NCBI GenBank assembly: GCA_017631955.1 | Contig: JAGBSJ010000005.1 | Coordinates: 18,688 to 82,687, forward strand | Direction: 5' to 3' | DNA length: 64,000 nt | Origin: Clostridia bacterium | Lineage (GTDB): Bacteria; Bacillota; Clostridia; Oscillospirales; Acutalibacteraceae | Shown: positions 2,693 through 64,000 of the stretch, piece after piece | How positions within the stretch are numbered: position 1 is the first letter of the stretch | How the letters are laid out: each line of letters opens with the position of its first letter | Program-made: the position numbers and the translations under genes | Notes under the pieces: generated by a model | The model's input: only the letters and a program-made list of their open reading frames with translations | Told to the model about the DNA's origin: nothing | Databases searched by the model: none

Positions 2693-2743
2693 ATTTAATA
2701 CTCCTATCACATAGTTTCCCAGAATATTTATTTTATTCAACTC

Positions 2744-2772
2744 ATTATATCAAAGCAATTTGCTTTATGCAA
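2744..2772 (-). promoter_or_regulatory. Near-consensus sigma-A-type promoter for the BY-kinase gene
   Basis: Minus strand reads TTGCAT (2767-2772), a 17-nt spacer, then TATAAT (2744-2749). The spacer contains the palindrome AAAGCAAaTTGCTTT. Confidence 0.55.
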
Positions 2773-2790
2773 TCTTTTTTTAGAAATAAT

Positions 2791-4434
2791 TCAACTTTCT
2801 TCTATTTTACCGTCCGAAACTATAATTTCGCGGTCACAATATTCAAGAACAGATTCGCGATGAGTAATGAACAACACAGTAATATCTTTTCGTTTTCTGA
2901 TATTCTGTAGCAATCTCTTTTCACTTTCACTATCAAGAGCGCTTGTTGACTCATCCATAAGAAGAATTTTTCCTTCACCTAAAAGAGCACGTGCAACCGC
3001 AAGTCGTTGTGCCTGACCTTCTGAAATTCCGCCACCATCTTCGCTCAGCACAAAATCAAGTCCATTTTCAAGGTCATAGACAAACTCGGCACACGAATCG
3101 GTAACCGCTTGTTTTATTTCTTCTTCACTTGCTTGTGGTCGAAGCAAGGTAATGTTTTCTCTTACTGTTCCGCTGAAAAGCATATTACCCTGAGGGACTA
3201 CTGAGAAAAGATGTCTTGTTTTCTGGCAAGAACACTCGCCTTTTTCTGTTTCAATACAAATGCAACCATCATTTGCCGGGTAAAGTCCTGTAATCAATTT
3301 AAATACTGTTGATTTTCCCGCACCTGACGGACCTTTTATTCCTACAAACTCACCTTTTTCAATAGTAAAGGTTGCATTCGAAATAACTTTTTCGCCACCA
3401 TAACCAAAAGACACATTTTCTGCCTTGATTTTTTTGAAATCGTTATATTCAATTGCCATATCGCTTTCTGTTTCATCATTGCCCACTTCTGAAATTTCAA
3501 TAAGGCGCTGTGCAGATGCAATCATGGCATAGAAAGCGGGCAACACGCTTGTAACACCTACAATAGGTGATTGCAGTTGATTCACAAGCTGAACAATTGC
3601 TACAACTGTACCAAAAGTCATTGTGCCGTTGAGAATTCCGTATGAGCCATACCAAACCGCCGCAAGAAATCCTATTGCAAAAGCCAGCGAAAAACTGATA
3701 GTTGCTAAAATCGAAAAACTTTTTTTCTTTACTTTTTCACGATAGAACTTTTTCTGTTGTTTATATGAGCGGTTTATGATTTTTTCTTCTATACCAAAAA
3801 CTTTTACTGCAAAAAGATTTTCAAGCATTTCCTGCATAAATGAACGGACACGTGCATCTCTTTTCTGTACGCGCAAGTGCAAATTTTTAAGTATTTTTCT
3901 GAATGTTGCCGCCGCTATAATTACAACTATACCACAAACAATAAATACTATTGCAAAGCGTTTATCAAGAGCCAACAGAGCAATCGCGGCGCTTGCAATT
4001 CTGGCGATATATGCTACCATTGACGGAAAAATTCTTACATAGTTATCACTTACAAGCGTTACATCTGATGTAAGACGAGTCATAAGGTCACCGCTATGAC
4101 GCTCACTTACATTTGCATATTGACCATAAATAACACTTTTGAAAACGTTAGTTTTAAGAGCAATTTCCGCTCTACCCTGACTTATTGCCTCAACAAAAGA
4201 AGCGCAAACTCTCGCTATAATCTGAAAAATTATAAAAAACATAAGAATTAAAGCGTTCTTTAAAAGCTCGTCTGAGTTTTTGCTTTGAGCATTATCTATT
4301 ACAGTTTTAGAAAGCACCGCAAACATAGTTGCACAAACGGCAGAAAAGGCGTTAAGCACAACAAGTGCCACACCTTCTGCTCTGCGTTTTTCGCAGTGAT
4401 TATAAATCCATTTCAAAACTGCTGTATCTTTCAT
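2791..4434 (-). CDS. ABC exporter, fused 6-TM permease plus ATPase (ABCB-type half transporter, no C39 peptidase domain)
   Basis: 547 aa. Walker A GPSGAGKST, ABC signature LSEGQAQRLAVARAL, Walker B ILLMDESTSALD, hydrophobic N-terminal half. Confidence 0.9.
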   Translation of the reverse strand: MKDTAVLKWIYNHCEKRRAEGVALVVLNAFSAVCATMFAVLSKTVIDNAQSKNSDELLKNALILMFFIIFQIIARVCASFVEAISQGRAEIALKTNVFKSVIYGQYANVSERHSGDLMTRLTSDVTLVSDNYVRIFPSMVAYIARIASAAIALLALDKRFAIVFIVCGIVVIIAAATFRKILKNLHLRVQKRDARVRSFMQEMLENLFAVKVFGIEEKIINRSYKQQKKFYREKVKKKSFSILATISFSLAFAIGFLAAVWYGSYGILNGTMTFGTVVAIVQLVNQLQSPIVGVTSVLPAFYAMIASAQRLIEISEVGNDETESDMAIEYNDFKKIKAENVSFGYGGEKVISNATFTIEKGEFVGIKGPSGAGKSTVFKLITGLYPANDGCICIETEKGECSCQKTRHLFSVVPQGNMLFSGTVRENITLLRPQASEEEIKQAVTDSCAEFVYDLENGLDFVLSEDGGGISEGQAQRLAVARALLGEGKILLMDESTSALDSESEKRLLQNIRKRKDITVLFITHRESVLEYCDREIIVSDGKIEES

Positions 4435-4443
4435 TTTGTCGCC

Positions 4444-4710
4444 TTATTCGTCGAGCAAATTATGCTCTTTCATTTTCTTTATAAGATTTTCCACATCTGT
4501 TTTAACTCTTTCAACAGACACACCGTAGTCGTTTGCAATTTTTACTACTATTTCATCAACAGAGTTTGTGCCATCAAGCATATTGAAAACATCTGCACCA
4601 ACACTGTTAAAAGTCATAATTCCGTTAAAATTCAATTTTTGTTTACCTGTTGCAATAACAATATTTGAACCGGCAACTTCTTTCAAGATATATCCGTCTT
4701 TTATTTTCAT
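4444..4710 (-). CDS. PqqD-family protein (RiPP recognition element-like, 88 aa)
   Basis: MKIKDGYILKEVAGSNIVIATGKQKLNFNGIMTFNSVGADVFNMLDG..VDEIV..IANDYGVSVERVKTDVENLIKKMKEHNLL matches the usual stand-alone PqqD/RRE pattern (beta strands, then a winged-helix-like tail). Its ATG overlaps the upstream stop (ATGA at 4707-4710). Confidence 0.75.
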   Translation of the reverse strand: MKIKDGYILKEVAGSNIVIATGKQKLNFNGIMTFNSVGADVFNMLDGTNSVDEIVVKIANDYGVSVERVKTDVENLIKKMKEHNLLDE

Positions 4711-5420
4711 TCGTTAATCAACCTTTCAATTTCGTTGTATGCAACTATTGCCGCATCATCATCCATATTACACCCTAATGAAAACACAGGCACATCACGC
4801 AACAATTTGTCAACCATATCGAGCATTGTTTCAGCAAGTTCTTTGTTTGCCGGATGCAATGTCTGTTCAATCATCAGTCCTATTGCTTGTGGCATTGGAA
4901 TTCTTTTTACAGAATTAGTTTCGCTTCTGTGCAAGAATACAATTGCTCTTACAGGAATTCTAACATCTATATTTTCATCAGTTTTTCCTGAAAACGGAGT
5001 TCCACAAGCATACCACTTGCCTTCATCTAAAATGAGCGCGGGCTTATCGTCATTGATAATTCTTGCACCCTCAAAATTTTTAAGCCACAAATGAGTGTGG
5101 GTCGACTTGCCTGTTCCGCTTCGTGCAGAAAAAAGATATGCAAATCCATCTTTTTCAACGCAAGAGGAATGAAGCATCATACCATTATACCTTAAAAGTT
5201 CTCTGTAAAACGCTTCGCAAGTCCACATATATTCGTGTTCATCTGCATTAAGATATGGAATTTTTTCCATTCTTCTATTTATATACTCATCACTTACAAT
5301 TGCTCTTATCTGAGTTTCATCGTCACTAAAATCCGCTTTGTACGGCTCTGAGCGTTCACGAAGAAGTTCGCCACGAACTTGGTATTCAGTTTTTAATCCG
5401 GCAATTATGTATTTTTCCAT
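4707..5420 (-). CDS. HPr-kinase-like P-loop protein (HprK C-terminal-domain fold, putative peptide/protein kinase)
   Basis: LHSSCVEKDGFAYLFSARSGTGKSTHTHLWLKNFEGARIINDDKPAL parallels the HprK/P core (hG..v...G..vLi.G.SG.GKS ... lvaDD). The ORF track starts at TTG 5426; the ATG at 5420 is preferred. Recognised by motif only. Confidence 0.6.
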   Translation of the reverse strand: MEKYIIAGLKTEYQVRGELLRERSEPYKADFSDDETQIRAIVSDEYINRRMEKIPYLNADEHEYMWTCEAFYRELLRYNGMMLHSSCVEKDGFAYLFSARSGTGKSTHTHLWLKNFEGARIINDDKPALILDEGKWYACGTPFSGKTDENIDVRIPVRAIVFLHRSETNSVKRIPMPQAIGLMIEQTLHPANKELAETMLDMVDKLLRDVPVFSLGCNMDDDAAIVAYNEIERLINE

Positions 5421-5438
5421 TTTCAAAATCCAATCAAA

Positions 5439-7151
5439 TTATCGTTTTAAATAGTTCATAGGGTTAACATTTCTACCATTAACCTTAACTTCAAAGTGAA
5501 GATGTGCACCTGTAACAAAACCTGTTGCACCAATTTGTCCAATTGCTTGTCCTCTAACAACTTTTTGACCTGAATAAACTCTTAATGAGCCGTTTCTCAT
5601 ATGGTTATACATTGTAGAAAGACCGCCTGAGTGCTTGATAATAACTGTATTACCACCTGAGCCATACCAACCTGCAAAGGTTACTGTTCCTGACTCTGCA
5701 GCAACAACAGTACAACCCGTACTGCCACCTGGACGGACAATATCGATACCCGCGTGCCAACCGTCACCGAAATTACGGCGACCGTATCCAGATGAAACAG
5801 AGTAAGCGCCCACCGTAGGCCATAAAAGACGACCGCCACCAGACACAATAGCACCTGATGAATAATTGTTTTTCTTTGTACCTACCTGAACTTTTTGGTC
5901 TCTTGGCTCACTTATTGTTGTTCGTGAAACCTCTTTTGTTGATACTCTTACACCGTCAATATATGTTACAAGTTCCGTTACTTCCTGCACGCCATTAGCG
6001 CCTTTAGTAACAGTCTTTTTGTCGCCTATGTAGAGTTTATCTGTCTTGATTTCTACTGTTTTATAAGGAATTTCCACTCTTCTTGTTTCAGTTTTTGTAG
6101 TCTGAACACGAAGGAAATTAACCTCATTTGACAAAAGTATCTGTTGGCCGATATAAATATTCTCTTTAAGGGATGGGTTAAGATTGAAAATCTGTGAAGA
6201 TTTCATACCGAATTTCTGTGCAATCTGAGAAACAGTATCTCCTGCCTGAACGGTATAATAGCGTGCTTCACTCTTTTTAGAATTGAGTTTTTCACTAAGA
6301 AAAGCCGCATCTTTTACTGTGCTTTCATTGTCTGGGTACAGACCCTGAACATACTCAATATTTTCAACAAAACTTACCACTGCATTTTCTTCGTCAGTTT
6401 CGTGCTCAGCAAGAATACTGTCAAAAACACTTAATGCGTCAGTTTCATTTTTAACCGCACATACGAACTGATTATCAATATAAATTCCGCAAGCGTTTGT
6501 AATTTTACTGTCAGAATTTTCAATAAGCTTATCACAAATTTCAGAAGCATCGTTAATCTGGCTCAACTTCACTGCTTTGATTTTATATTGTGCTTCGCCT
6601 ATAAGTTCGGTTTCTTTTCCGTCGTCTGTAACAACTGACGATGCAGCAGAAATGTCAAGACGGTCGAAAGCTAACTCTCTGGCTTCTTTATATACCTCTT
6701 CATTCTGCACATAACCGATTGTTTTATCGTTATAATTCACTTCAAGAGCAAAGGTTGTATCCGCCCACAAAGTTGCCACGTTAAGAAGAATGACAAAAGC
6801 CACTATCGGTAATGCAAAATTAAGCACATAAACGAACGCTTTTCTGTAACGTAAATTTGCTTTTTTAACATAAGCAGAAAATTTCTTAAACCAGTTACCC
6901 TCAACTTTTGCCTGAGTAAGTTTATCAGAAACTTTTCGGGTATCTTCAACCAAATCTTTTATTTCATTTACGATTTCATGGAATGTTTTAAGGGCAAACT
7001 TGTCAATAAGAATAAACAATGTGAAAACAAGCGTAGCAATAGTTTTCAATGGTTTAAGCATTAAAGCCCACAGACCCTTGAAAAATCTTTTGCCATATCG
7101 CATTGTCTGAATTCCGATATAATATATTTGATTGTAAATGTTTTCAAACAT
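5439..7151 (-). CDS. Membrane-anchored peptidoglycan hydrolase with LysM, G5 and M23 metallopeptidase domains
   Basis: LysM YYTVQAGDTVSQIAQKFGMKSSQIFNLNP. G5-like VEIPYKTVEIKTDKLYIGDKKTVTKGANGVQEV..VQVGTK. M23 motifs HAGIDI and GATGFVTGAHLHFEV. N-terminal TM segments. RBS GAGGA. Confidence 0.9.
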   Translation of the reverse strand: MFENIYNQIYYIGIQTMRYGKRFFKGLWALMLKPLKTIATLVFTLFILIDKFALKTFHEIVNEIKDLVEDTRKVSDKLTQAKVEGNWFKKFSAYVKKANLRYRKAFVYVLNFALPIVAFVILLNVATLWADTTFALEVNYNDKTIGYVQNEEVYKEARELAFDRLDISAASSVVTDDGKETELIGEAQYKIKAVKLSQINDASEICDKLIENSDSKITNACGIYIDNQFVCAVKNETDALSVFDSILAEHETDEENAVVSFVENIEYVQGLYPDNESTVKDAAFLSEKLNSKKSEARYYTVQAGDTVSQIAQKFGMKSSQIFNLNPSLKENIYIGQQILLSNEVNFLRVQTTKTETRRVEIPYKTVEIKTDKLYIGDKKTVTKGANGVQEVTELVTYIDGVRVSTKEVSRTTISEPRDQKVQVGTKKNNYSSGAIVSGGGRLLWPTVGAYSVSSGYGRRNFGDGWHAGIDIVRPGGSTGCTVVAAESGTVTFAGWYGSGGNTVIIKHSGGLSTMYNHMRNGSLRVYSGQKVVRGQAIGQIGATGFVTGAHLHFEVKVNGRNVNPMNYLKR

Positions 7152-54120: not shown

Positions 54121-56172
54121 TTATATTGTGTTTGCAGTGTTAGAAACTTGTAAACTATAGACTTTTTTCATTACTTGTCTTCCGATTTTTTGATGGTCAG
54201 TCATTTTGAAATCTTTATCGACAGCCATAATTTCTTTCGCCAACTCTTGTGTTTCCATAAGAATTTTTGTATCAGTTAAAATGTCGGCAATACGAAGTTT
54301 AGGAAGACCGTGTTGACGAGTACCGAAGAAATCACCGGGACCGCGAAGTTTCAAATCTTCGTCGGCAATCTTAAATCCGTCGGTAGTTTCACACATAATT
54401 TTCATTCGTGCCATTGTTTCGTCACTTGTTGCATCTGTCACAAGAATACAAGTGGATTTTGCCTGTCCACGACCTACACGACCGCGCAATTGATGAAGCT
54501 GTGAAAGACCGAAACGCTCGGCATTTTCAATCACCATAATAACAGCATTAGGCACATCAACACCAACCTCAATAACAACTGTTGAAATAAGCAGTTGTGT
54601 TTCGCCGCTCTTAAATTTAAGCATTATTTCGTCTTTTTTCTTTGGGGACATTTGACCGTGAAGCAAATCAAGTTTGTAATCCTTAAACGGTAATTGTGCT
54701 TTTTTGTAATATTCTTCTGCTGAAAGTACACCCTGCATCATTTCGCTTTCTTCAACAAGTGGACAGACGATATATGCCTGATAACCTGCATCAAGGTGTT
54801 TTCTTATGTAGTCAAACATTCCGCCACGCTTACCTGAATTTACTGAATATGTTTCGATTTTTTGTCTGCCCGGTGGCAATTCGTCGAGAATTGAAACATT
54901 CAAATCCCCAAACATAATAAGGCCTAACGTTCGTGGAATTGGCGTTGCCGACATAACATAAACATGAGGATTGTCGCCTTTTGCACAAAGTCCTGTTCGT
55001 TGTTTTACACCGAAACGGTGTTGTTCATCAGTAATAACAAGACCAAGTTGTTTGAACACAACATCATCTTGAATAAGCGCGTGAGTGCCTATAATTAAAT
55101 CGATTTCGCCATTTTCAAGGCGATTTTTTATTTCTTTTTTCTCTTTTGCTTTTGTGCTACCAGTTAACAATTCACAACGAATTCCACTGCCTTTAAAAAG
55201 TTTTTCAAAGGTTTCAAAATGTTGCGTTGCAAGCACTTCTGTTGGTGCCATAAGGGCAGACTGCATTCCGCTTTTCGCTACATTATAAACAATTGCGGCG
55301 GCTACTGCAGTTTTACCGCTACCAACATCACCCTGTAAAAGTCGGTTCATTTGTTTTCCACTTTGCATATCAGAAACAGCTTCTTTTACCGCTCTTTTTT
55401 GTGCATTTGTAGGGGTAAACGGTAAAACTGAGAAAAACTCGTCGGAAAAATCTTTTGCAACAATGTTGCCTGTTTTTACAGTTGAGTTATCTTTTTTCAA
55501 GGACAATAAGCTCAACTGTAAAATGAACAACTCGTCAAAAATCAATCTGTTTCTTGCATTCTGCAAATCTGTATCATCTATTGGAAAATGAATATTGCGA
55601 AGTGCAGTATCAAGGGACACAAGATTAAATTTTTTAATAATATAATCAGGTAAATAGTCGGGTATTTCGTCAATTTTATTAAGTGCATTCTGCACCGCCG
55701 ATTGAACAATTTTTGTAGTAATAGTTTTATTCTGTGGGTAAATTGGTCTTATTTCTACGCTTTTCTCGGCTTTTATAAACATTGGTGACACCATTTCGCG
55801 TGCCGCAAATTTACCTAACGTAAATTTTCCGTAGAAAAGATATTCTTCACCACTTTTAAGCATTTTTTCAATATATTTGTTGTTGAAAAATGTTACTGCA
55901 ATAACATCTTCACCGTCAGTTACAGTTGCTTTCGCAACAAGCATTCCGCCACGGACACGCTCATTTTTAACAGGGAACATAACAGTACCCTTAATGCACA
56001 CATTTTCACCAACTATACATTGAGAAATAGGAACAATTTTACTCCAGTCCTCATAAGCGCGAGGATAAAAACGAAGAAGTTCCCCGACAGTTGACACACC
56101 AAGGAGGCGAAAACCCTCTGCACGAGTTTCGCCAACACCCTTGATATACTTAATATCGTCGGAAAACTTCAT
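54121..56172 (-). CDS. recG: ATP-dependent DNA helicase RecG
   Basis: Wedge domain, GDVGSGKT, DEQHRFG, TATPIPRT-like SATPIPRT, QLRGRVGRG. Confidence 0.95.
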   Translation of the reverse strand: MKFSDDIKYIKGVGETRAEGFRLLGVSTVGELLRFYPRAYEDWSKIVPISQCIVGENVCIKGTVMFPVKNERVRGGMLVAKATVTDGEDVIAVTFFNNKYIEKMLKSGEEYLFYGKFTLGKFAAREMVSPMFIKAEKSVEIRPIYPQNKTITTKIVQSAVQNALNKIDEIPDYLPDYIIKKFNLVSLDTALRNIHFPIDDTDLQNARNRLIFDELFILQLSLLSLKKDNSTVKTGNIVAKDFSDEFFSVLPFTPTNAQKRAVKEAVSDMQSGKQMNRLLQGDVGSGKTAVAAAIVYNVAKSGMQSALMAPTEVLATQHFETFEKLFKGSGIRCELLTGSTKAKEKKEIKNRLENGEIDLIIGTHALIQDDVVFKQLGLVITDEQHRFGVKQRTGLCAKGDNPHVYVMSATPIPRTLGLIMFGDLNVSILDELPPGRQKIETYSVNSGKRGGMFDYIRKHLDAGYQAYIVCPLVEESEMMQGVLSAEEYYKKAQLPFKDYKLDLLHGQMSPKKKDEIMLKFKSGETQLLISTVVIEVGVDVPNAVIMVIENAERFGLSQLHQLRGRVGRGQAKSTCILVTDATSDETMARMKIMCETTDGFKIADEDLKLRGPGDFFGTRQHGLPKLRIADILTDTKILMETQELAKEIMAVDKDFKMTDHQKIGRQVMKKVYSLQVSNTANTI

Positions 56173-56184
56173 AAATTCACCTTA

Positions 56185-57675
56185 TTATAAGTTGTGGTAT
56201 AAATCAAATGGATTTTTTGACAAATCCACTTTCACATCTGCACTTGTTACTGAGTATCCATTACGGAAAAGTACAGGTACAAATGGGTATTCTTCTGCGA
56301 AAATTTTATAGTATTCCTCCACAGTAATTTCACCTGCACGGTAACGGAAATAATCTGTTGCCGCTTTACCTGATTTATCAATTCCGCCATTTAAATTTCC
56401 GCGGAAAAATCGTGATAAATCCATTGAACCGTCAAGCTTGACTTCACCTAAATACATATCATAATTTCCTGCAGAAATTCTCTGGTTGTAATCTGCGAAA
56501 GAGAGCAAACTAACATTTACATAAAATCCGATTTTGTTCAGGTTATCGGCAATATTATATGCCGCTGCAACTCTATATTTGTTATCTTTATTAACAATTA
56601 AATTGAATGACAATAAATACGCGCCATTTGTTCTTGCTTTTCCAGAAAAACGAGTATAACCGCATCTGTCAATGATTTTTTCAGCAAGAGCGGTGTCGCC
56701 TTGCTCACTTACTGTCTTAATCTTTTCATAAAAACTAGCATTTGGATTAACAGGCATTTTTACCGCTTTGCCATGCCCCTGATAAGACGAGAGTACTACA
56801 TCTTCACCGTTAAGTTGCGCCGCAATTGCACTTCTTATATACTTATTCAATGCACCATTGTTACTGTTAAGCCCAAGATACACCATATTATTAAGCATTA
56901 CTTCTTCTGTTTTGCCGGTAACACCAATATATTCGCAATTTGAAAGGTCGCTGAAATAAACATCTGTAGCACCTATTTTAAATGCATTTTCTGAACTTTT
57001 GTTTGTATCAATAGTATACAACTTGATTTTCTTTGAACTATCGGTATTGTTCACAAGTTGATTTTCAAGCCAATAGTATTCGCCACTACCAGTTGGCACT
57101 GCAGTTTGAATATCGGCAGTACCTTCTTTAGTTATTGGGAAACAAAGTTTTGCACCCACATAAACATCGGAAAAATCAAGTGTGAATTCAACTGTGTATT
57201 TTGATTTTGCAGTAGCACTCAAAACCCCGTTTAGATACCCCGCCCAAGCGTATGATGCCTTTGCAAGATTAAGAGAATACACAACATCATAAGCGTTAAT
57301 TGGTTGTGAGCCACGGCACACAGCATCTGTTCGCAACTGCACTGTTGCAGTTGTTCCCTTGACCGATATGCTTGTGGCAATCTGTGGAACAATTTCGTAG
57401 TTTTCATCCACCGTAAAAAGTGAGTCGAAAAGCATTTTACAGATATAAATATTTTCGTTGCTCTTTACAAAATAAGGATTAACTCCGTCACTCTCGTTAT
57501 AAGGCAAGGCGATTACTCCGTCACCTTTTGCGGTTTCTTCACCATTAGAAGTTGCAATATTGTCTTGTGGAGCATCTGTTGATGGCTCATTCGTTGTTGG
57601 ATTATTACCACCGCAAGCAGAAAAGAGCATAGTAACACATAAAATTAATGCAATTATTTTTAATGCACTTTTCAT
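56185..57675 (-). CDS. Family-5 ABC substrate-binding lipoprotein (peptide/nickel type), no cognate permease nearby
   Basis: Lipobox MLFSAC. 496 aa with SBP_bac_5-like overall pattern. Weak motif evidence only. Confidence 0.55.
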   Translation of the reverse strand: MKSALKIIALILCVTMLFSACGGNNPTTNEPSTDAPQDNIATSNGEETAKGDGVIALPYNESDGVNPYFVKSNENIYICKMLFDSLFTVDENYEIVPQIATSISVKGTTATVQLRTDAVCRGSQPINAYDVVYSLNLAKASYAWAGYLNGVLSATAKSKYTVEFTLDFSDVYVGAKLCFPITKEGTADIQTAVPTGSGEYYWLENQLVNNTDSSKKIKLYTIDTNKSSENAFKIGATDVYFSDLSNCEYIGVTGKTEEVMLNNMVYLGLNSNNGALNKYIRSAIAAQLNGEDVVLSSYQGHGKAVKMPVNPNASFYEKIKTVSEQGDTALAEKIIDRCGYTRFSGKARTNGAYLLSFNLIVNKDNKYRVAAAYNIADNLNKIGFYVNVSLLSFADYNQRISAGNYDMYLGEVKLDGSMDLSRFFRGNLNGGIDKSGKAATDYFRYRAGEITVEEYYKIFAEEYPFVPVLFRNGYSVTSADVKVDLSKNPFDLYHNL

Positions 57676-57679
57676 TGTG

Positions 57680-58471
57680 TCACCTCACTGTAATCGAGGT
57701 TGCCTCAACAGTTTTTCCTGTGTCGCGGTCAATAGTGAAAACACAGCCCTGCATAAAGCAAGGGGTGTCCGCAGTTTCAAACATAGGGGCAAATCCTTTT
57801 CTGAATTTCTCAATAATTATTTCTTTTTTCACACCCAGTACTGATTCTTCGGGACCTGTCATACCTAAATCGGTAATATAACCTGTACCGCCAGCCATAA
57901 TCTGCGCATCCGAAGTCTGAATGTGTGTATGTGTACCGAAAATCGCACTCACTTTGCCATCAAGAAAATAACCGAGGGCTTTTTTCTCTGCAGTTGCTTC
58001 GGCATGGAAATCAACAAGTATGATTTTCGTTTCTTTTTTAAGTTCATCAATAAGTTTTTCGGCAGTTTCGAATGGGTCGGAGTGACCTTCAAGCCAAACT
58101 CTGCCGAGTAAGTTTATAACGCCTACCTTATAGGCGCCTTTGTCAATAATTCCGTAGCCCTTACCCCATACTCCGTCACCAAAATTTGCAGGGCGAATTA
58201 CGGCTTCTGCGCGGTCAAGATATTCGTAAATTTCACGACGTTTGAAAGAGTGGTTACCACCTGTAATAAAATCTGCACCGCTTGTAAAAATACTGTTGCA
58301 GGAGTTTGGTAACATGCCGTTGCCTACTGCAGAATTCTCACCGTTTACAATACAAACATCAATATTGTTTTCTTTTTTAAAATCTGCAAGTTTTTTTCGT
58401 AAAAACTCGCATCCATTGGCACCGACAACATCGCCGACACAAAGAATTTTAATGTTGCGTGACATAAGCAC
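57680..58471 (-). CDS. ymdB: YmdB-type metallophosphoesterase (TIGR00282)
   Basis: KILCVGDVVG, NGENSA, GNH, DFHAEATAEK. Directly downstream of rny, as in Bacillus. Confidence 0.88.
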   Translation of the reverse strand: MLMSRNIKILCVGDVVGANGCEFLRKKLADFKKENNIDVCIVNGENSAVGNGMLPNSCNSIFTSGADFITGGNHSFKRREIYEYLDRAEAVIRPANFGDGVWGKGYGIIDKGAYKVGVINLLGRVWLEGHSDPFETAEKLIDELKKETKIILVDFHAEATAEKKALGYFLDGKVSAIFGTHTHIQTSDAQIMAGGTGYITDLGMTGPEESVLGVKKEIIIEKFRKGFAPMFETADTPCFMQGCVFTIDRDTGKTVEATSITVR

Positions 58472-58544
58472 ACCGTTTCTATATATGGATTTAATTTATT
58501 TTGCCCCGAAGCCGAAAGACAACGGGGCATTTTTAGCAAAATTA

Positions 58545-60095
58545 TTATTTAGCGAAATCAATAACTCTGTTCTCGCGAACAATATTAACCTTGATTTGAC
58601 CTGGGTATTCAAGCTCGTCTTCAATTTTCTTTGCAATATCGCGAGCAACAATAACCATCTTTTCGTCAGATACCTGGTCTGGATTAACCATAATTCTGAT
58701 TTCGCGACCTGCCTGAATAGCGAATGATTTCTCAACGCCTTCAAATGAAGTTGCGATTTCTTCAAGTTTTTCAAGACGCTTGATGTAGTTCTGAACATTT
58801 TCACGTCTTGCACCAGGGCGAGCCGCTGAAATAGCATCTGCTGCCTGAACAAGTACGGCAACAATTGTTTTTGCTTCGATTTCACCGTGGTGAGCCGCAA
58901 TAGCATGAACAACTTTGTCGTTTTCTTTGTATTTTTTAGCCGCTTCAACACCAAGTTCAATATGTGTGCCTTCGAATTCACGGTCAAGTGCTTTACCGAT
59001 ATCGTGAAGAAGACCTGCACGTTTAGCTTGTTTTACGTCTGCACCAAGCTCTTGTGCCATAAGACCTGCAATGTATGAAACTTCAAGTGAGTGGTTGAGC
59101 ACATTCTGACCGAAACTTGTACGGTATTTAAGTTTACCAAGAAGTTTTACAAGTTCAGGATGCACACCATTAACGCCTGCATCAATAACTGCGCGTTCGC
59201 CTGTCTGTTTAATTGTCTGTTCAACCTCACGCTTTGATTTTTCAAACATTTCTTCAATGCGAGCAGGGTGAATTCTACCGTCCTGAATAAGACGTTCAAG
59301 AGTAAGTCGTGCTACTTCACGACGAACAGGGTCAAAACTTGAAACTGTAATTGCTTCAGGAGTGTCGTCAATAATAAGGTCAACACCTGTAATTGTTTCA
59401 AGAGTACGAATGTTACGACCTTCACGGCCGATAATTCTACCCTTCATTTCGTCATTTGGAAGAGCAACAACTGAAACTGTTGCTTCAGCAGCGTGGTCGG
59501 CCGCACAACGCTGAATAGCACCTGAAATAATTTCGCGTGCAAGATTGTCGCTTTCGTCACGAGTTCTCTGTTCAAAATCCATAATTTTGAGTGCTTTTTC
59601 GTGAGTGAGTTGTTCGTCAAGTTCTTGCATAAGAAGTGCTTTTGCTTGTTCTTTTGAGTAGCCACTAACTTTTTCAAGCATTTCAAGTTGGCTACGTTTA
59701 AGCATTTCAACTTCTTCCATTTTAGCATCAGCAGCTTTAAGCTTTTCGGCTAAAAGTTCTTCTTTCTTTTCAAGGTTTTCAGTTTTCTTGTCAAGATTTT
59801 CTTCTTTTTGATTAAGTCTGTTTTCTTGTCTTTGTACCTCTGCGCGTCTTTCACGAAGTTCTTTATCAACTTCACTTCTTAACTTGTGTATTTCATCTTT
59901 CGCCTCAAGAATAGCTTCTTTTTTCTTACTTTCAGCAGATTGCACTGCCTGATTAACAATTCTTAATGCTTCTTCATTAGCGGAGCCGATTTTTGCTTCT
60001 GCAACCTTTTTACGATAAAGGTTACCAACAACGAAGCCCAATACTCCAAATACAACAGCAGAGACAACGGCAAGAATAATGGTAATAGGTTCCAT
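58545..60095 (-). CDS. rny: Ribonuclease Y
   Basis: N-terminal TM, coiled coil, KH ([12 protein letters not shown]), HD (LLHDIGKA). Confidence 0.96.
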
Positions 60096-60257
60096 TATGT
60101 CGTTCCCTCCTTAAATAATATTTAATTTCAAAAGATATATCAAAAATATGTAATGAAATTAAGGTGAATGAGTATAGAAATACTATTTTCCCATACTATC
60201 TTTTATATTTTACACAAAAATGAACACAATGTCAAGATGGGATTCGGTAGAAATGCG

Positions 60258-60283
60258 AAAAGCAGTTCCGAAGAACTGCTTTT
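60258..60283 (-). terminator. Terminator of the cohesin-dockerin gene
   Basis: AAAAGCAGTTC cgaa GAACTGCTTTT, an 11-bp stem with A/T arms that could act in both directions. Confidence 0.75.
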
Positions 60284-60316
60284 TCTAAAAATATATCATT
60301 CCACTCTTTTTACAAA

Positions 60317-61372
60317 TTATCTTATTTGTAAAACAGCAGATTCATTACCGCCTACATACTGCTTAATCTTCAAAGCGTCTGTACCTGAAAGAACTGCATC
60401 ATTATCTGCATCTGCAGCACTTAAGTTTACCTCTTCACTAATTCTTGCGATATTACCACCTGCATATTGCTTGATATAGAGAGCGTCTGTGCCCGAAAGA
60501 ACACCATCACCATCCACATCGCCAAAAATGATAACTGTATATGTATCAATTACTGCGCCACTTGAATTTTTTACATTAATTGTAGCACCTGTGCCGTTTT
60601 TATAGCCCGCTGAATTGGCAACAAGTTCAAGGGTGCCGTTTTTAACTGTAAAATAGGTTTCTATATCTGTACCAGGGGTAATTCCATAAACATATTTGTT
60701 TTCTTTGTCAATTACAGGGGATTTGCCGTCTTTAGCGATAAGCTCTGCATCACCATCCACAATCATAATTGAAGATGAAGCACTTTCAAGATTCACGTTT
60801 TCAACATTTTCAGGGATTGATGTTATTTTTGTTCCGCTAGTTGTTGTACCAAAATACAACATACCTGCAACATTATCTTCTGTTTTTGCTGATTCAGTAA
60901 TGCATTTTATAAGAGCATTACCTGTCATATCTGTCTTTGCAGTAATTGTAAACATGAGAATTGTCGCTTCTTCAACGGTTGCAACTGTATCATTTGCACC
61001 GCCAATATATGTAACAAGAACAAAACCGTATTTTGAACTATCAATTTCTGTGTTTGCATATATTTTTGAACTGTCAGTTGCAGTTGCATCAGTTGTTACA
61101 TTCGATATGGCATAATCAGTAAGTGTTGCAGTAATATTGCTTACACTAACCAGTGTCTTATCATAAAACACTGGTATTGATGCGGTAGCAACAGGGAAGT
61201 TAGTGGTTGATTTTACTGTTACTGTTGCAGTTTCACCTGCTGAAAGTTCAGTTTTATCAATAGTAATTGAAACTGAAGCGCTATTTGTATTCGCAACTGT
61301 ACCTACTATAAAAGCAGATATAATTAAAACCGCCGCCACAACTATTGCGATTATTTTGTTTTTATTTTTCAT
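60317..61372 (-). CDS. Secreted or anchored adaptor protein: cohesin-like module, conserved X module and C-terminal dockerin
   Basis: Signal/anchor IIAIVVAAVLIISAFIVG. Cohesin-like SITIDKTELSAGETATVTVKS...IPVFYDKTLVSV...ILMFTITAK. Dockerin repeats DVDGDGVLSGTDALYIKQY and DADNDAVLSGTDALKIKQY. Confidence 0.75.
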   Translation of the reverse strand: MKNKNKIIAIVVAAVLIISAFIVGTVANTNSASVSITIDKTELSAGETATVTVKSTTNFPVATASIPVFYDKTLVSVSNITATLTDYAISNVTTDATATDSSKIYANTEIDSSKYGFVLVTYIGGANDTVATVEEATILMFTITAKTDMTGNALIKCITESAKTEDNVAGMLYFGTTTSGTKITSIPENVENVNLESASSSIMIVDGDAELIAKDGKSPVIDKENKYVYGITPGTDIETYFTVKNGTLELVANSAGYKNGTGATINVKNSSGAVIDTYTVIIFGDVDGDGVLSGTDALYIKQYAGGNIARISEEVNLSAADADNDAVLSGTDALKIKQYVGGNESAVLQIR

Positions 61373-61402
61373 TACAACCGCCCCTGAACATTATTTGATT
61401 TC

Positions 61403-61431
61403 ATTTTACCATTTTATTTTATTTATTGCAA
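61403..61431 (-). promoter_or_regulatory. Sigma-A-type promoter for the 60317-61372 gene
   Basis: Minus strand TTGCAA (61426-61431), 17 nt, TAAAAT (61403-61408). Confidence 0.45.
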
Positions 61432-61541
61432 TACTCAAATAGCAAACGAAAAGAGTTTTGTAAATTTGAGTTTGTAGGTATAAGTGCAAAATAGAAAGTG
61501 GAAAACGGAAAACGAAGGAACTGCGTTGCAATTTATATATT

Positions 61542-61651
61542 GCCTCCCTCTGACGAGGGCACGGGCATCCGGTGGATGCCGAATTAGCGCTGTCTGAGCC
61601 GGCAGGCGAGTAATGAGGTGGCAACGCGTTAGCGTTGACGGAGGGAGATAT
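61542..61651 (+). repeat. GC-rich structured repeat, copy B, with a 56-nt nested insertion
   Basis: CCTCCCTC tgac GAGGG [cacgggcatccggtggatgcc...gcgagtaatg] AGGTGGCA acgcgttagcgt TGAC GGAGGGAG. It is collinear with copy A apart from the insertion (61560-61615, containing hairpin GGCATCCggtGGATGCC) and a different second hairpin. Confidence 0.8.
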
Positions 61652-61672
61652 AGTTAATATATAAACTTACTA

Positions 61673-61716
61673 CCCCTCAGTCAACTTCGTTGACAGCTCC
61701 CCTGACAAGGGGAGCC
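61673..61716 (-). repeat. GC-rich structured repeat, copy C (sister variant, opposite orientation)
   Basis: Plus strand CCCCTCAG TCAACttcGTTGA CA GCTCCCCT gaca AGGGGAGC. The reverse complement has the same S / loop / S' / TG / hairpin / TGAC / GAGGG order as copies A and B. Confidence 0.75.
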
Positions 61717-61780
61717 AAATATATGCCTTTAATGAACTAGACAAACTATAATTTGTGAAACAGAACAAAATATATAGACT

Positions 61781-61815
61781 CCCAACGAAAAGGATTATTC
61801 TCGTTGGGCTTTTTG
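61781..61815 (+). other. Plus-strand terminator-like hairpin with no plus-strand gene
   Basis: CCCAACGA (61781-61788) pairs with TCGTTGGG (61801-61808), followed by CTTTTTGC. Confidence 0.4.
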
Positions 61816-61877
61816 CTAAAAGACAAAAATTATAGATTCATAATATTAAAATCCATTTTACATTATGCTTTTTGCTA

Positions 61878-61900
61878 AAAACGATTCCCCGAATCGTTTT
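61878..61900. other. 10-bp A/T-armed hairpin
   Basis: AAAACGATTC ccc GAATCGTTTT. It is preceded by GCTTTTTGCTAAAA, which also occurs at 61808-61821. Confidence 0.5.
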
Positions 61901-61908
61901 CTTAACGC

Positions 61909-61936
61909 AAAAAACCCGAGGGGGTTACCCTCGGGG
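61909..61936 (-). terminator. Strong rho-independent terminator of the 39-codon ORF
   Basis: Minus strand CCCGAGGG taacc CCCTCGGG followed by TTTTTT (plus-strand A-run 61909-61914). Confidence 0.85.
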
Positions 61937-61961
61937 AAAAATATTTTTTTCTAGAAACGGA

Positions 61962-62081
61962 TTAGCCGTTCCAACCGTCATTACCACCGTCGACTGCGCC
62001 TTCACCGATTGAAAGAGTAATAACATCTTCAATCTCGTAAACTGTCACATCGAAATCTGGTGTCATATATTCACGTGTCAT
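61962..62081 (-). CDS. Untracked small ORF, 39 aa, acidic: MTREYMTPDFDVTVYEIEDVITLSIGEGAVDGGNDGWNG (candidate RiPP precursor-like peptide)
   Basis: Manual translation. ATG at complement 62079-62081, AAAGGAG 11 nt upstream, TAA at 61962-61964, and a strong terminator about 25 nt downstream. It lies 72 nt after the 399-aa cohesin-like gene with no intervening terminator. Confidence 0.55.
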   Translation of the reverse strand: MTREYMTPDFDVTVYEIEDVITLSIGEGAVDGGNDGWNG

Positions 62082-62153
62082 ATTCGTGTTAACTCCTTTC
62101 AAATAAGTACATTATAAATTAATAATTGTTTTAATCTCAAAAACTAATAGAGA

Positions 62154-63353
62154 TTATTTGTATTGATTATATAATGCACCTACATTAAGAGTTGCATCGT
62201 AATATGCGTATGCTGTTTCACCGTCAGCGTTTTCATAGATAACATAGCCAAGACCATAAAGAGTTGCTGCTTTGTTAGCGTCGGTATCAGCAATGTTAGA
62301 AACGAAGCATGCGAATGCATAATCTGTGCCTTCGAATGTTGTTGAAACGTAACAGTCTTTAACCTGTGAGTATACTACTTCTCCGCCTTCAACCTGAGCT
62401 TTAGCAGCTTCAACGTCCATTACTTCACTGTTTGTGAAGACATAACCAACGTCAGTAATCTTTGCTTTAGCATCATTAAGGTCAGCAAAAATCTCTTCGA
62501 AGTTATCAAACTGACCAACAATACGATAGTCAAACTGGTTAGCATAAACGCCTTCCTTGTCAAGGTCGAATCTAATCTGGTTCTTGAACCAGCTAACTGA
62601 AAGTTCAGGAGCTGCTGGAGCTGTGTATGTGTAATCAGGTGTTAAGATATCAGATACTGGCAAAATATTAACTGGGTTTGACGCTGTCATTGAGAAGAAT
62701 TTTCCTGCAACTGGAGTTGAGTCATAACCAATTGATTTTGAGTCCTGAATTGATGTACCTGCACCAAATGAGAACTGTGCGCCTTCTACGTCAGCTACAA
62801 GAGCTTTGAAGTAAATTTCGCAGAATCCTTCATTTTCCATTGTACCTGGCATCAATGTTTTGTCGCCAATTTCGTATGTTAAAAGAACTGTACCTGATGC
62901 TTTATAGTCAGCCTTAAGTTCAAAAGAACCTGTTTTGTGGCCACCACCGTAGTACTGACCACGGCTTGTTACAACATTACCTGCAGAGTTGTACATGTTT
63001 GTGTCTGTAAGCTGTCCCAATGGGAAAATTGCAACTGTTGGGAATTCAGGGTCACAAACATATTCGTAGTTGATGCTACCATTGTTTGAGTCAACTGGAG
63101 CAAACAAACTGTCATCATAGTTAACGTCCATAATAACAGTAGCCATTCTACAGTCTGATGTTAAGTTGATAGTTAATTTGTAAATACCAGCGTCCTCTGA
63201 TTTTACGCCAGCCTCGTCAACCTCACCAACAACAGGTGCTAAACTCATTTCGAATTTTACATTAACATCTGCTGCACTAGTTGGAATAACAAGAGCTGTA
63301 CACATTAAAACCAAAGCTAACGCAATTGAAAAAATGCGCATTGCTTTTTTCAT
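62154..63353 (-). CDS. Secreted protein with N-terminal cohesin-like module and unknown C-terminal domain (no dockerin)
   Basis: Signal peptide MKKAMRIFSIALALVLMCTALVIPTSA. VNVKFEMSLAPVVGEV...ATVIMDVNYDDSLFAPV...FCEIYFKALVADVEGAQFSF resembles the cohesin beta-sandwich pattern. RBS AGGAGG. Confidence 0.55.
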   Translation of the reverse strand: MKKAMRIFSIALALVLMCTALVIPTSAADVNVKFEMSLAPVVGEVDEAGVKSEDAGIYKLTINLTSDCRMATVIMDVNYDDSLFAPVDSNNGSINYEYVCDPEFPTVAIFPLGQLTDTNMYNSAGNVVTSRGQYYGGGHKTGSFELKADYKASGTVLLTYEIGDKTLMPGTMENEGFCEIYFKALVADVEGAQFSFGAGTSIQDSKSIGYDSTPVAGKFFSMTASNPVNILPVSDILTPDYTYTAPAAPELSVSWFKNQIRFDLDKEGVYANQFDYRIVGQFDNFEEIFADLNDAKAKITDVGYVFTNSEVMDVEAAKAQVEGGEVVYSQVKDCYVSTTFEGTDYAFACFVSNIADTDANKAATLYGLGYVIYENADGETAYAYYDATLNVGALYNQYK

Positions 63354-63367
63354 GTGGAAAGACCTCC

Positions 63368-64000
63368 TTATCTTGCCTGTGAAACTGCAGATGCATTACC
63401 ACCTGCGAACTGTTTAATCTTCAACGCATCTGTACCTGATACTGATGTGTCGTTATCTGCGTCAGCTGCAAGTAAGTTAGCTTCTTCAGAAATTCTGCCA
63501 GCATTACCACCTGCATACTGTTTGATGTAAAGTGCGTCTGTACCTGAAAGAGCACCGTCGCCGTCAACGTCACCGAATACTACGAGTATGTATTCACCAA
63601 CAACGTTATCGCTCTTATCTTTAACTACAAGAGTTGCACCTGTACCATTTGTTTTACCTGTTGCATTTGCTACAACTTCAATAGAACCTGTATCGTTTGT
63701 TGTGAAGTATTTGTCAACGTCTGTTGCGCCAACTTCAATACCATAAACGAAACCTGTTGACATGTCAGCGCCTTCTTCAGTAGTATCCTTAACGAGACCA
63801 CCGTCAACGCCTTCAAATTCAACGTCTGTTACTGCTTTTTCGAAGTTTGCCATAGCTGCTACAAGAGCTGCGTTAGCTGCGTCAACTTTTGCCTTGTTAC
63901 CAGCTTTATTTGGACGGTCATTTTCTGAGTATTCAAGAGCTGAATCAGCATAGAGGTTGAACATCATTGGTGTGCCGTCGTCATTAACCTTAAGTTCGCC
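63368..64000 (-). CDS. C-terminal part of a dockerin-bearing protein (X module plus dockerin); N-terminus lies beyond the window
   Basis: The frame stays open upstream of the ORF-track Met to position 64000 (GELKVNDDGTPMMFNLY). Dockerin repeats DVDGDGALSGTDALYIKQY and DADNDTSVSGTDALKIKQF. The X module is paralogous to that of the 60317-61372 protein. Confidence 0.8.
   Translation of the reverse strand, partial: GELKVNDDGTPMMFNLYADSALEYSENDRPNKAGNKAKVDAANAALVAAMANFEKAVTDVEFEGVDGGLVKDTTEEGADMSTGFVYGIEVGATDVDKYFTTNDTGSIEVVANATGKTNGTGATLVVKDKSDNVVGEYILVVFGDVDGDGALSGTDALYIKQYAGGNAGRISEEANLLAADADNDTSVSGTDALKIKQFAGGNASAVSQAR

Follow-up and report, generated by a model that had tools for sequence, protein, structure and literature searches.

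In the paeninodin and pseudomycoidin lasso peptide clusters, the C-terminal serine of the precursor is phosphorylated by an HprK kinase, and PsmN, a nucleoside triphosphate (NTP) transferase-like protein, is needed for the addition of a hexose to the phosphorylated peptide (PMC6993621). The accessory genes of the lasso clusters of Firmicutes code for the HprK kinase, a PqqD-type B1 protein, an uncharacterised NTP transferase and an ATP-binding cassette (ABC) exporter, and both HprK kinases and PF14907-type enzymes are documented to tailor the lasso precursors (PMC6993621, PMC7533575). The predicted precursors start with MKK-(W/Y)-x-x-P-x-L-E-V, and their cores are acidic and rich in Pro and Asp (PMC7533575). 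Here, we describe a short peptide gene found in a 64,000-nucleotide stretch of a Clostridia bacterium genome (contig JAGBSJ010000005.1, positions 18,688 to 82,687; hereafter, the window), which a first-pass annotation, made from the sequence alone, had proposed to encode a lasso precursor.

Similar to PadeA and PsmA, the precursors of paeninodin and pseudomycoidin, the peptide is short, has a start of the M-K-K-(Y/W)-x-x-P-x-(L/F)-(E/D)-V type and a threonine near the leader end, and carries an acidic tail that is rich in Pro and Asp and has an aromatic residue close to its C-terminal end. Genes resembling the accessory set (K, B1, N, and D), namely those for PqqD, HprK-like, PF14907, and ABC proteins, are located near distant members of the peptide family, although the one for PF14907 is not found in the window. 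In contrast to paeninodin and pseudomycoidin, neither a cyclase nor a B2 protein was found among the window ORFs tested or among the matches listed for eight related loci, the ring acceptor is not conserved, there is no C-terminal serine, the leader is longer, an S24/S26-like peptidase occurs in place of B2, and large surface-protein genes go together with the precursor gene. We would class the system as a new variant, lacking the cyclase, of the lasso-related peptide systems that depend on a recognition element (RRE) for peptides that are made ribosomally and modified after translation (RiPPs), and a lasso topology of the peptide is not supported. On balance, and with confidence somewhat better than even, we favour the reading that the peptide is the substrate of an RRE-guided system related to the paeninodin/pseudomycoidin clusters but devoid of the ring-forming enzymes, and that it is exported and acts at the cell surface.

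The Peptide Gene and Its Conserved Leader

The open reading frame (ORF) starts with an ATG at 62081..62079, has its last Gly codon at 61967..61965, and ends with TAA at 61964..61962 of the minus strand. Its translation, MTREYMTPDFDVTVYEIEDVITLSIGEGAVDGGNDGWNG, is identical to that given by the first-pass annotation, from which the strand was absent. The expression signals described there were also recovered. The AAAGGAG-type ribosome-binding site (RBS), GAAAGGAG, lies 11 nt before the ATG, nothing terminator-like separates the ORF from the upstream gene, and the 8-bp GC hairpin with U6 corresponds to a stem with seven G-C pairs (61935..61915) located 26 nt beyond the stop codon and followed by T6. 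One signal had been overlooked, a promoter-like TTGAGA-18-TATAAT in the 72-nt gap after the upstream gene; it is predicted from the consensus match only, and the peptide gene could just as well be co-transcribed with the upstream gene. An RBS-like motif is found within 20 nt upstream of 55 of the 60 distinct homologous ORFs, and a hairpin with a T-run within 90 nt downstream at 50 of the 60 homologous loci; in relatives, gene callers that start too early read the RBS in frame as 'LKGA'. Expression signals are present, and the gene is probably expressed.

As many as 97 ORFs of at least 25 aa overlap positions 55000..64000 of the window, so a 39-codon ORF is not significant by itself, and it is conservation that carries the case for a gene. 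The protein search with the peptide returned 77 small homologues, none of them named and none with a Pfam domain, and an exhaustive HMMER search with a profile of these homologues gave 72 cluster representatives. The exact peptide sequence is gene-called, without a name, in public assemblies. A DNA scan of one genome per species revealed 57 peptide loci in metagenome-assembled genomes (MAGs) labelled 'Candidatus Fimenecus', Clostridia, Eubacteriales, and Oscillospiraceae, plus one Lachnospiraceae and one Ruminococcaceae, and isolate names point to the gut of sheep, goat, buffalo, deer, and rabbit, among others. The homologue search that the first-pass annotation had proposed as a check gave an intact reading frame in all of the loci, about 100 in the Fimenecus/Oscillospiraceae MAGs and gut/rumen metagenomes together, with no frame loss.

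The alignment bears out the division into a conserved leader and a variable core that had been suggested earlier: residues 1–24 are nearly invariant and the tail is hypervariable. In 61 aligned sequences, 15 columns are invariant and four nearly so, and, with the exception of Trp37 in the tail, all of the conserved columns fall within residues 5–24 (Y-x-T-P-D-F-D-V-T-V-Y-E-I-E-D-V-I-T-x-S), the Y-x-(T/S)-P-D-F motif being invariant. The proposed dN/dS check likewise revealed a constrained sequence. Over 20 leader codons, pS is 0.57 and pN is 0.10 (pN/pS = 0.18), with synonymous sites near saturation. The invariant residues are each encoded by several codons (all four for Pro, and two or three for Asp, Phe, Tyr, and Thr), and, together with the excess of pS over pN, this identifies the gene as protein-coding rather than RNA. 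The ORF is a real, strongly conserved coding gene. Few coding segments of the locus are under stronger constraint than its leader, though the gene is below the usual size cut-offs.

No Pfam or NCBIfam match to the peptide was obtained at E-values up to 10, the Rfam search of 61300..62200 at E-values up to 1 gave weak, chance-level matches only, and no publication was found by a full-text literature search for segments of the leader sequence. Outside the window, a giant, 6596-aa repeat protein (P0078) gave 21 weak matches to the leader profile (SYTTPQLDITAGAIQDV) with a summed E-value of 4e-33; it was rejected as a homologue, since the match is probably a repeat-inflated product of chance.

The tail after Ser24 varies from 5 to 58 residues (median, 17), and tails differ between genomes by substitutions and in-frame indels, so that length changes keep the frame. 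Their composition is steady (Gly 22%, Asp 15%, Trp 8%, Asn 7%), and a Trp is found among the last five residues of 106 of the 122 tails, usually as W-(W/Y/F)-G. No GG is conserved after the leader in the homologue alignment. The first-pass annotation had placed a Thr before the leader end and a Ser as the first core residue; the residues themselves hold up, Thr22 being invariant and Ser24 present in 115 of 122 sequences, whereas the lasso reading built on them fails. With cleavage between residues 23 and 24, Thr22 and Ser24 would form a lasso-type −2/+1 pair, but they may fit the −3/−1 site of a cluster-encoded S24/S26-like peptidase equally well.

Distant Family Members and the RRE Gene Set

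A metagenome scan seeded solely with the most distant family peptides (pattern F[EA]xEDVITxS) revealed 44 gut/rumen loci encoding M-(K/E)-K-Y-x-x-P-E-x-E-I-x-x-F-E-x-E-D-V-I-T-T-S followed by variable tails. At 16 or more of the 44 loci, the peptide contig carries at least one gene for PqqD (PF05402), an HprK/ScmC-like protein, NTP_transf_5 (PF14907), an ABC exporter, or a small S24/S26-like serine peptidase. The majority of these contigs span 1–5 kb; two context look-ups for distant peptides fell on contigs under 1 kb. PqqD genes adjoin family peptides in 13 metagenome loci. The gene order in four of the loci (L072, L087, L098, and L104) is HprK-like, PqqD, ABC, peptide, peptidase, NTP_transf_5, and in L068 it is peptide, HprK-like, PqqD, peptidase. 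A literature search on PF14907 returned nothing relevant.

Distant members of the family are thus co-located with RRE, kinase-like, NTP-transferase, peptidase, and exporter genes. The suggestion of the first-pass annotation that Y-x-x-P-x-F is an RRE-binding leader motif gains independent support from this proximity to PqqD-type RREs and lasso accessory genes, and the motif may serve that purpose. The features expected of an RRE-dependent RiPP, i.e., a genetically encoded precursor whose leader is conserved and whose core varies, accompanied by an RRE, a tailoring enzyme, and an exporter, were found at the level of architecture and gene co-location.

In the window, a trio of such genes is located at 2791..5426. 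Its HprK/ScmC-like protein has a precomputed PF27840 (ScmC) assignment and is 37–46% identical to the products of genes adjacent to family peptides at eight loci (L068, L071, L072, L083, L084, L087, L098, and L104), with the highest identity, 46%, to that of L084. The ABC exporter shares 37% identity (E-value about 1e-127) with the exporter encoded directly upstream of family peptides in L072, L087, L098, and L104, and the three values for the trio against family-adjacent genes are 37% (1e-33), 33% (1e-12), and 37% (1e-127). The exporter is considered to have no C39 peptidase domain, as the bacteriocin ABC models align only from about residue 150–180. Because of this homology to genes beside distant family peptides, the trio is probably the partner of the peptide, and its PqqD gene probably not the unrelated orphan it had been described as. 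No precursor-like small ORF was found beside the trio, and no other family member in the window. In a related strain, the same trio, with an identical PqqD, and an identical peptide tail are encoded about 60 kb apart on one 260-kb scaffold.

The pairing of an HprK-like P-loop protein with a PqqD-family peptide chaperone is also typical of ScmC (SynChlorMet cassette) and HprK_rel_A ('HPr-rel-A system'), two NCBIfam cassettes known from genomics only. Unlike these, the window protein scores 40 bits against a cut-off of 125 and 23 against a cut-off of 200, respectively, and has no radical SAM/SPASM partner. To our knowledge, the present substrate family is not part of the definitions of these cassettes.

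The Upstream Surface-Protein Gene

The gene upstream of the peptide gene encodes a 399-aa secreted protein that had been called cohesin-like, and the AlphaFold2 (AF2) model of its N-terminal domain indeed matches type II cohesins with a Foldseek probability of 1.0. Its C-terminal domain (CTD), about 150 aa in length, is located at the extreme C-terminus of all Fimenecus-type upstream partners. The CTD belongs to no Pfam family, and its model has nothing significant among PDB structures by Foldseek (best E = 0.012; TM at most 0.42; a generic Ig-like sandwich); the protein search with a CTD profile returned five fragments only. Matches of the whole upstream-protein model to MSCRAMM proteins, with a TM of about 0.2, were not accepted as evidence of a "dock, lock and latch" mechanism. 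Sequence searches of the PDB gave nothing significant for PqqD, the upstream protein, or the HprK-like protein, the TbiB1 match being at E = 0.41 only.

In 93 of 102 cases (52 of 56 Fimenecus-type and 41 of 46 distant ones), the peptide gene is preceded, at a distance of no more than 300 nt, by the end of a same-strand ORF of 150 aa or longer, and the median gap between the surface-protein gene and the peptide gene is 62 nt in the Fimenecus-type loci and 20 nt in the distant set. The upstream proteins tested contain cohesin, DUF285/BspA-LRR, or F5/8-C and Laminin_G domains, and the distant set includes a cohesin-containing protein. Profile comparison detected no relation between the C-termini of the upstream proteins at distant loci and the CTD. 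The recurrent theme is a surface-protein gene followed by a peptide and an RRE system, rather than one receptor domain.

In the Fimenecus-type loci, the cohesin-CTD gene is a mosaic. Its N-domain and CTD recombine independently among near-identical strains, with a breakpoint at about aa 245–250, which is the domain boundary. For example, locus L065 has a window-type cohesin domain (97% identity), a CTD of 34% identity, and a tail that differs from that of the window, while in L066 the cohesin domain is 20% identical to that of the window, the CTD is 91% identical, and the tail is the same. For 51 loci, the identity of the tail rises with that of the CTD (Spearman rho = 0.21; nominal p = 5e-14, from non-independent pairs), whereas it does not correlate with that of the N-domain (rho = 0.04).

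Copies away from CTD genes were also observed. In L035 (9998..), L044 (9998..), and L047 (10001..), a second peptide copy is found at a conserved housekeeping locus, between a ProC-like and a CysK-like gene, both judged from the N-terminal sequence. These orphan copies have another start (MKQY...) and the same tail as the CTD-linked copy. A radical SAM gene two genes from the L035 copy, judged to be PflX-like and housekeeping by its N-terminal sequence alone and set in a proC/mscL/cysK neighbourhood, was treated as coincidental. Outside the window, a predicted protein of 83 aa (P0144) has the N-terminus of a type III pantothenate kinase-like protein fused to the end of the peptide (…EIEDVITLSINNNDPDPVDPERPWWDAN), which may reflect either a chimeric assembly or recombination at the orphan locus.

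Two MAGs, JAZLAH01 (L037–L039, L043, L058) and JAFTUP01 (L051, L053–L056), contain three or more distinct peptide types, each of which follows its own CTD-bearing paralogue (864–1232 aa). Several contigs of these MAGs start or end about 150 nt or less from the peptide gene, suggesting that the assembly broke at repeated sequence.

The order of genes, with a giant dockerin protein, a cohesin protein, the peptide, and another dockerin protein, resembles that of the ruminococcal cellulosome/amylosome scaffoldin loci. The position of the giant dockerin gene 5' of the cohesin-CTD gene is kept in relatives, and the second dockerin gene is often found just downstream. In contrast to those loci, the family also follows non-cohesin surface proteins, the tail co-varies with a CTD that is not a cohesin, and the peptide falls far below the size of a dockerin, a duplicated Ca-binding loop-helix module of about 60–70 aa (PF00404). 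A dockerin mimic was rejected on these grounds: there is no match to PF00404 or any other Pfam family at E-values up to 10, the 15-aa tail compares with a module of 60–70 aa, and its variation follows the CTD.

Proposed Mechanism

The order of events under the favoured reading may be as follows. Transcription of the peptide gene would accompany, or closely follow, that of the cohesin-CTD gene, and a strong RBS of its own would direct its translation. The PqqD-type RRE would then bind the 24-residue leader, as the neighbourhoods of the distant genes and the likeness to YxxPxL suggest. By analogy with PadeK, PsmK, and PsmN, the HprK/ScmC-like protein, elsewhere together with NTP_transf_5, would modify the peptide, probably by phosphorylation with or without glycosylation. 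The leader would probably be removed beside T22-x-S24, the S24/S26-like peptidase being the candidate enzyme in other taxa, and the ABC exporter would secrete the product. Finally, the acidic, Gly/Asp-rich W-x-G tail may act at the surface as a lineage-specific determinant, in concert with the upstream-encoded protein, either as a ligand of the CTD or as a strain-specific signal. A more specific version, which we regard as speculative and rather improbable, has the exported tail, perhaps phospho-glycosylated, docking on the CTD as a lineage-specific "key", with lasso-derived machinery repurposed to anchor or assemble surface scaffoldin and adhesin complexes of gut Clostridia or to lend them an identity of their own.

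The placement of the peptide 3' of surface-protein genes and its constrained, lineage-specific tails are observed; peptide modification, cleavage, and export are steps that we infer. Several further points weigh against this reading. The trio lies 57 kb from the peptide gene in the window, and homologues of the S24/S26-like peptidase and of NTP_transf_5 are absent from the window. The HprK-like and PqqD proteins score below the curated NCBIfam cut-offs, the PqqD protein also below the lasso-specific ones, and the peptide matches no curated RiPP precursor model of Pfam or NCBIfam. A C-terminal Ser, the target of HprK, is present in only two of the 122 tails, which extends to the whole family the earlier remark that this peptide offers no such residue to a kinase. 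As the distant upstream proteins carry unrelated C-termini, a CTD-specific receptor role does not generalise, and physical linkage alone could explain the co-inheritance of tail and CTD.

Alternative Explanations

The first alternative to be considered is an unmodified small protein that partners the upstream protein, by beta-strand addition to the CTD or as a chaperone or scaffoldin regulator, with the PqqD system uninvolved. The first-pass annotation had likewise listed a small acidic partner of the cohesin proteins, and this idea receives some support: in the Fimenecus-type loci the peptide gene lies directly 3' of the CTD-protein gene on the same strand, in mosaic alleles the tail travels with the CTD, paralogous peptides in multi-copy genomes each follow their own CTD paralogue, and the leader looks potentially beta-strand-like. 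However, the orphan copies at the proC/cysK locus are away from CTD genes, and the CTD model is a complete, confident fold alone (pLDDT 93). The distant members, which follow unrelated C-termini and adjoin RRE, kinase-like, and exporter genes, are left unexplained. Moreover, the upstream protein carries a Sec signal peptide, which the peptide lacks, and only export of the peptide would bring the two into one compartment. We judge an unmodified partner unlikely, although it deserves to be kept in mind.

Somewhat less credit is given to a secreted pheromone-type signal, in which the leader would serve export and processing, the tail would define a specificity group for a receptor, and the surface protein would be a mere transcriptional neighbour. 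The evidence in its favour is the conserved leader with a hypervariable mature part, the dedicated ABC exporter, the shuffling of tail alleles among otherwise near-identical strains, and the maintenance of one tail by selection in two copies within a genome. The latter was observed in a single MAG, where the copy behind the CTD gene (L027) and that at the proC/cysK locus (L035) encode an identical 18-aa tail. Their tail DNA has nine synonymous and no non-synonymous differences, including an AGT-to-TCA switch of a Ser codon, and the flanks are unrelated, indicating that the tail is diversified between lineages and conserved within a lineage. In addition, tails ending in an acidic residue and W-W may resemble the streptococcal XIP pheromones.

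The likeness to the ComC/CSP and AgrD/AIP pherotypes extends from the conserved leader, hypervariable mature region, and within-lineage constraint to the swapping of alleles between close strains along with part of a neighbouring polymorphic gene. Unlike in those systems, no histidine kinase, AgrB, or C39 exporter is found nearby, and the polymorphic partner is the CTD of a secreted cohesin protein rather than a sensor. Nor is any Rgg/RNPP regulator or AgrB-like gene consistently close to the peptide, and there is no double-glycine leader. A double-glycine-leader bacteriocin or pheromone was rejected for the same reasons, as no GG/GA/GS cleavage motif is conserved and the exporter has no C39 domain. 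A pheromone shares much with the favoured reading, and the two part only over what the finished product does.

A true lasso peptide, as proposed by the first-pass annotation, would have Ser24 as core residue 1, an Asp8 macrolactam, and Trp14 as the plug, with a cyclase and a peptidase encoded elsewhere in the genome. This is very unlikely. It is true that Y-x-x-P-x-F, the invariant Thr22 two residues before the near-invariant Ser24, and the acidic tail with a late aromatic residue fit such a precursor, that the PqqD, HprK-like, NTP_transf_5, and ABC exporter genes are typical of Firmicutes lasso clusters, and that Asp or Glu occurs at core positions 7–9 somewhat more often than expected (87 of 120 tails from protein matches versus 65 ± 5 in composition shuffles; 67 of 99 tails from loci). 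However, 28% of the tails have no Asp or Glu at these positions, and in the closest relatives Asn takes the place of Asp8, the proposed acceptor (e.g., SIGEGAPNGG and SIGDGSVNGG). The Tyr-to-Thr spacing is longer than in the leaders of Firmicutes lasso peptides, as had already been noticed.

The enzymes were not recovered either. The first-pass annotation had reported neither a lasso cyclase nor a leader peptidase in the window, and none was found among the ten window ORFs tested, which include every still-unassigned ORF of at least 480 aa; these are housekeeping or unassigned, with no Asn-synthetase-like cyclase. At eight well-sampled related loci, neither a PF00733 cyclase nor a transglutaminase-like B2 was among the matches listed (47 neighbouring proteins; 25 of 40 families), and no lasso cyclase was seen in the conserved Fimenecus neighbourhoods.

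Finally, a non-coding accident, or an RNA element with a chance ORF, which the first-pass annotation had also mentioned, may be dismissed: ORFs this short are common by chance, but variation at third codon positions with fixed amino acids, a pN/pS of 0.18, and tail length changes that keep the frame effectively refute it, and Rfam gave no match of note.

Other Features of the Window

The coordinates of the peptide gene, its parts and signals, and the associated genes are given in Table 1. The RRE trio belongs to a tight same-strand string of genes (1172..7151, minus strand), in which an M23/LysM/G5 peptidase gene (5439..7151) is followed by those for the HprK/ScmC-like protein, PqqD, the ABC exporter, and a Wzz-type tyrosine autokinase that ends in a (GY)n tail (1172..2740). 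Given its flanking peptidase and autokinase genes, the trio is embedded among cell-envelope genes. The M23 peptidase gene, 13 nt upstream of the trio, could be co-transcribed with it.

An intergenic element at 61530..61730, 3' of the peptide terminator, has a GC content of 50% (38% in the window) and is hairpin-rich, with a minimum free energy of −79 kcal/mol (z = −4.9). Fragments of the element, in either orientation, are found again in other Fimenecus loci, namely in L024 (10294–10400 and 12043–11937), as well as in L013, L016, L019, L027, L033, L043, and L054–L056. The element resembles a dispersed repeat of the repetitive extragenic palindromic (REP) or miniature inverted-repeat transposable element (MITE) type, and has no Rfam match.

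Table 1. Features of the window associated with the peptide gene and the putative RRE system.
Feature	Position	Strand	Basis or remarks
39-codon peptide gene, including TAA	61962..62081	−	ORF reading and homologues
Leader-like segment, residues 1–24, M-T-R-E-Y-M-T-P-D-F-D-V-T-V-Y-E-I-E-D-V-I-T-L-S	62010..62081	−	Nearly invariant
Tail, residues 25–39, Gly/Asp/Asn-rich, ends W-N-G	61965..62009	−	Hypervariable; candidate released product
RBS GAAAGGAG	62093..62100	−	11 nt 5' of the peptide ATG
Promoter-like TTGAGA-18-TATAAT	62111..62140	−	11/12 consensus matches; in the 72-nt gap after the upstream gene
Intrinsic-terminator-like hairpin and T6	61909..61935	−	8-bp stem, 7 G-C, loop 5
Upstream 399-aa secreted protein: signal peptide, cohesin-like N-domain, conserved CTD	62154..63353	−	AF2/Foldseek and homologues
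CTD (about aa 250–399) of the upstream protein	62157..62606	−	Common to all Fimenecus-type upstream partners
3' end of giant dockerin-bearing protein gene (about 1800 aa in relatives)	63368..64000	−	Dockerin_1 match, 1.2e-9
HprK/ScmC-like P-loop protein, candidate tailoring enzyme in trans	4707..5426	−	ScmC, 2e-10; HprK_rel_A, 3e-5
PqqD-family protein, candidate leader-binding RRE	4444..4710	−	PqqD and lasso-PqqD model matches, PF05402
ABC exporter (permease and ATPase), candidate peptide exporter	2791..4434	−	Bacteriocin-exporter model matches

Significance

A gene with so strongly constrained a leader that is nevertheless below the usual size cut-offs is a warning for annotation. If the favoured reading is true, it defines a widespread peptide family in the Oscillospiraceae-type Clostridia of the gut and rumen, the genes of which are unnamed in public assemblies. 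The accessory half of the Firmicutes lasso clusters (the RRE, HprK-like kinase, PF14907 enzyme, and ABC exporter) would then work without a cyclase on a distinct substrate, which would constitute a new RiPP-like class and would provide a function for "incomplete lasso clusters" and "orphan" PqqD genes. Should the tail prove to be a docking "key", this would be a peptide-mediated system of surface-protein attachment or recognition with no described precedent. A hypervariable, strain-specific peptide would also be tied to cohesin/dockerin and adhesin-type surface proteins, from which one could test how uncultured gut bacteria that degrade fibre and starch assemble their surface complexes or tell them apart.

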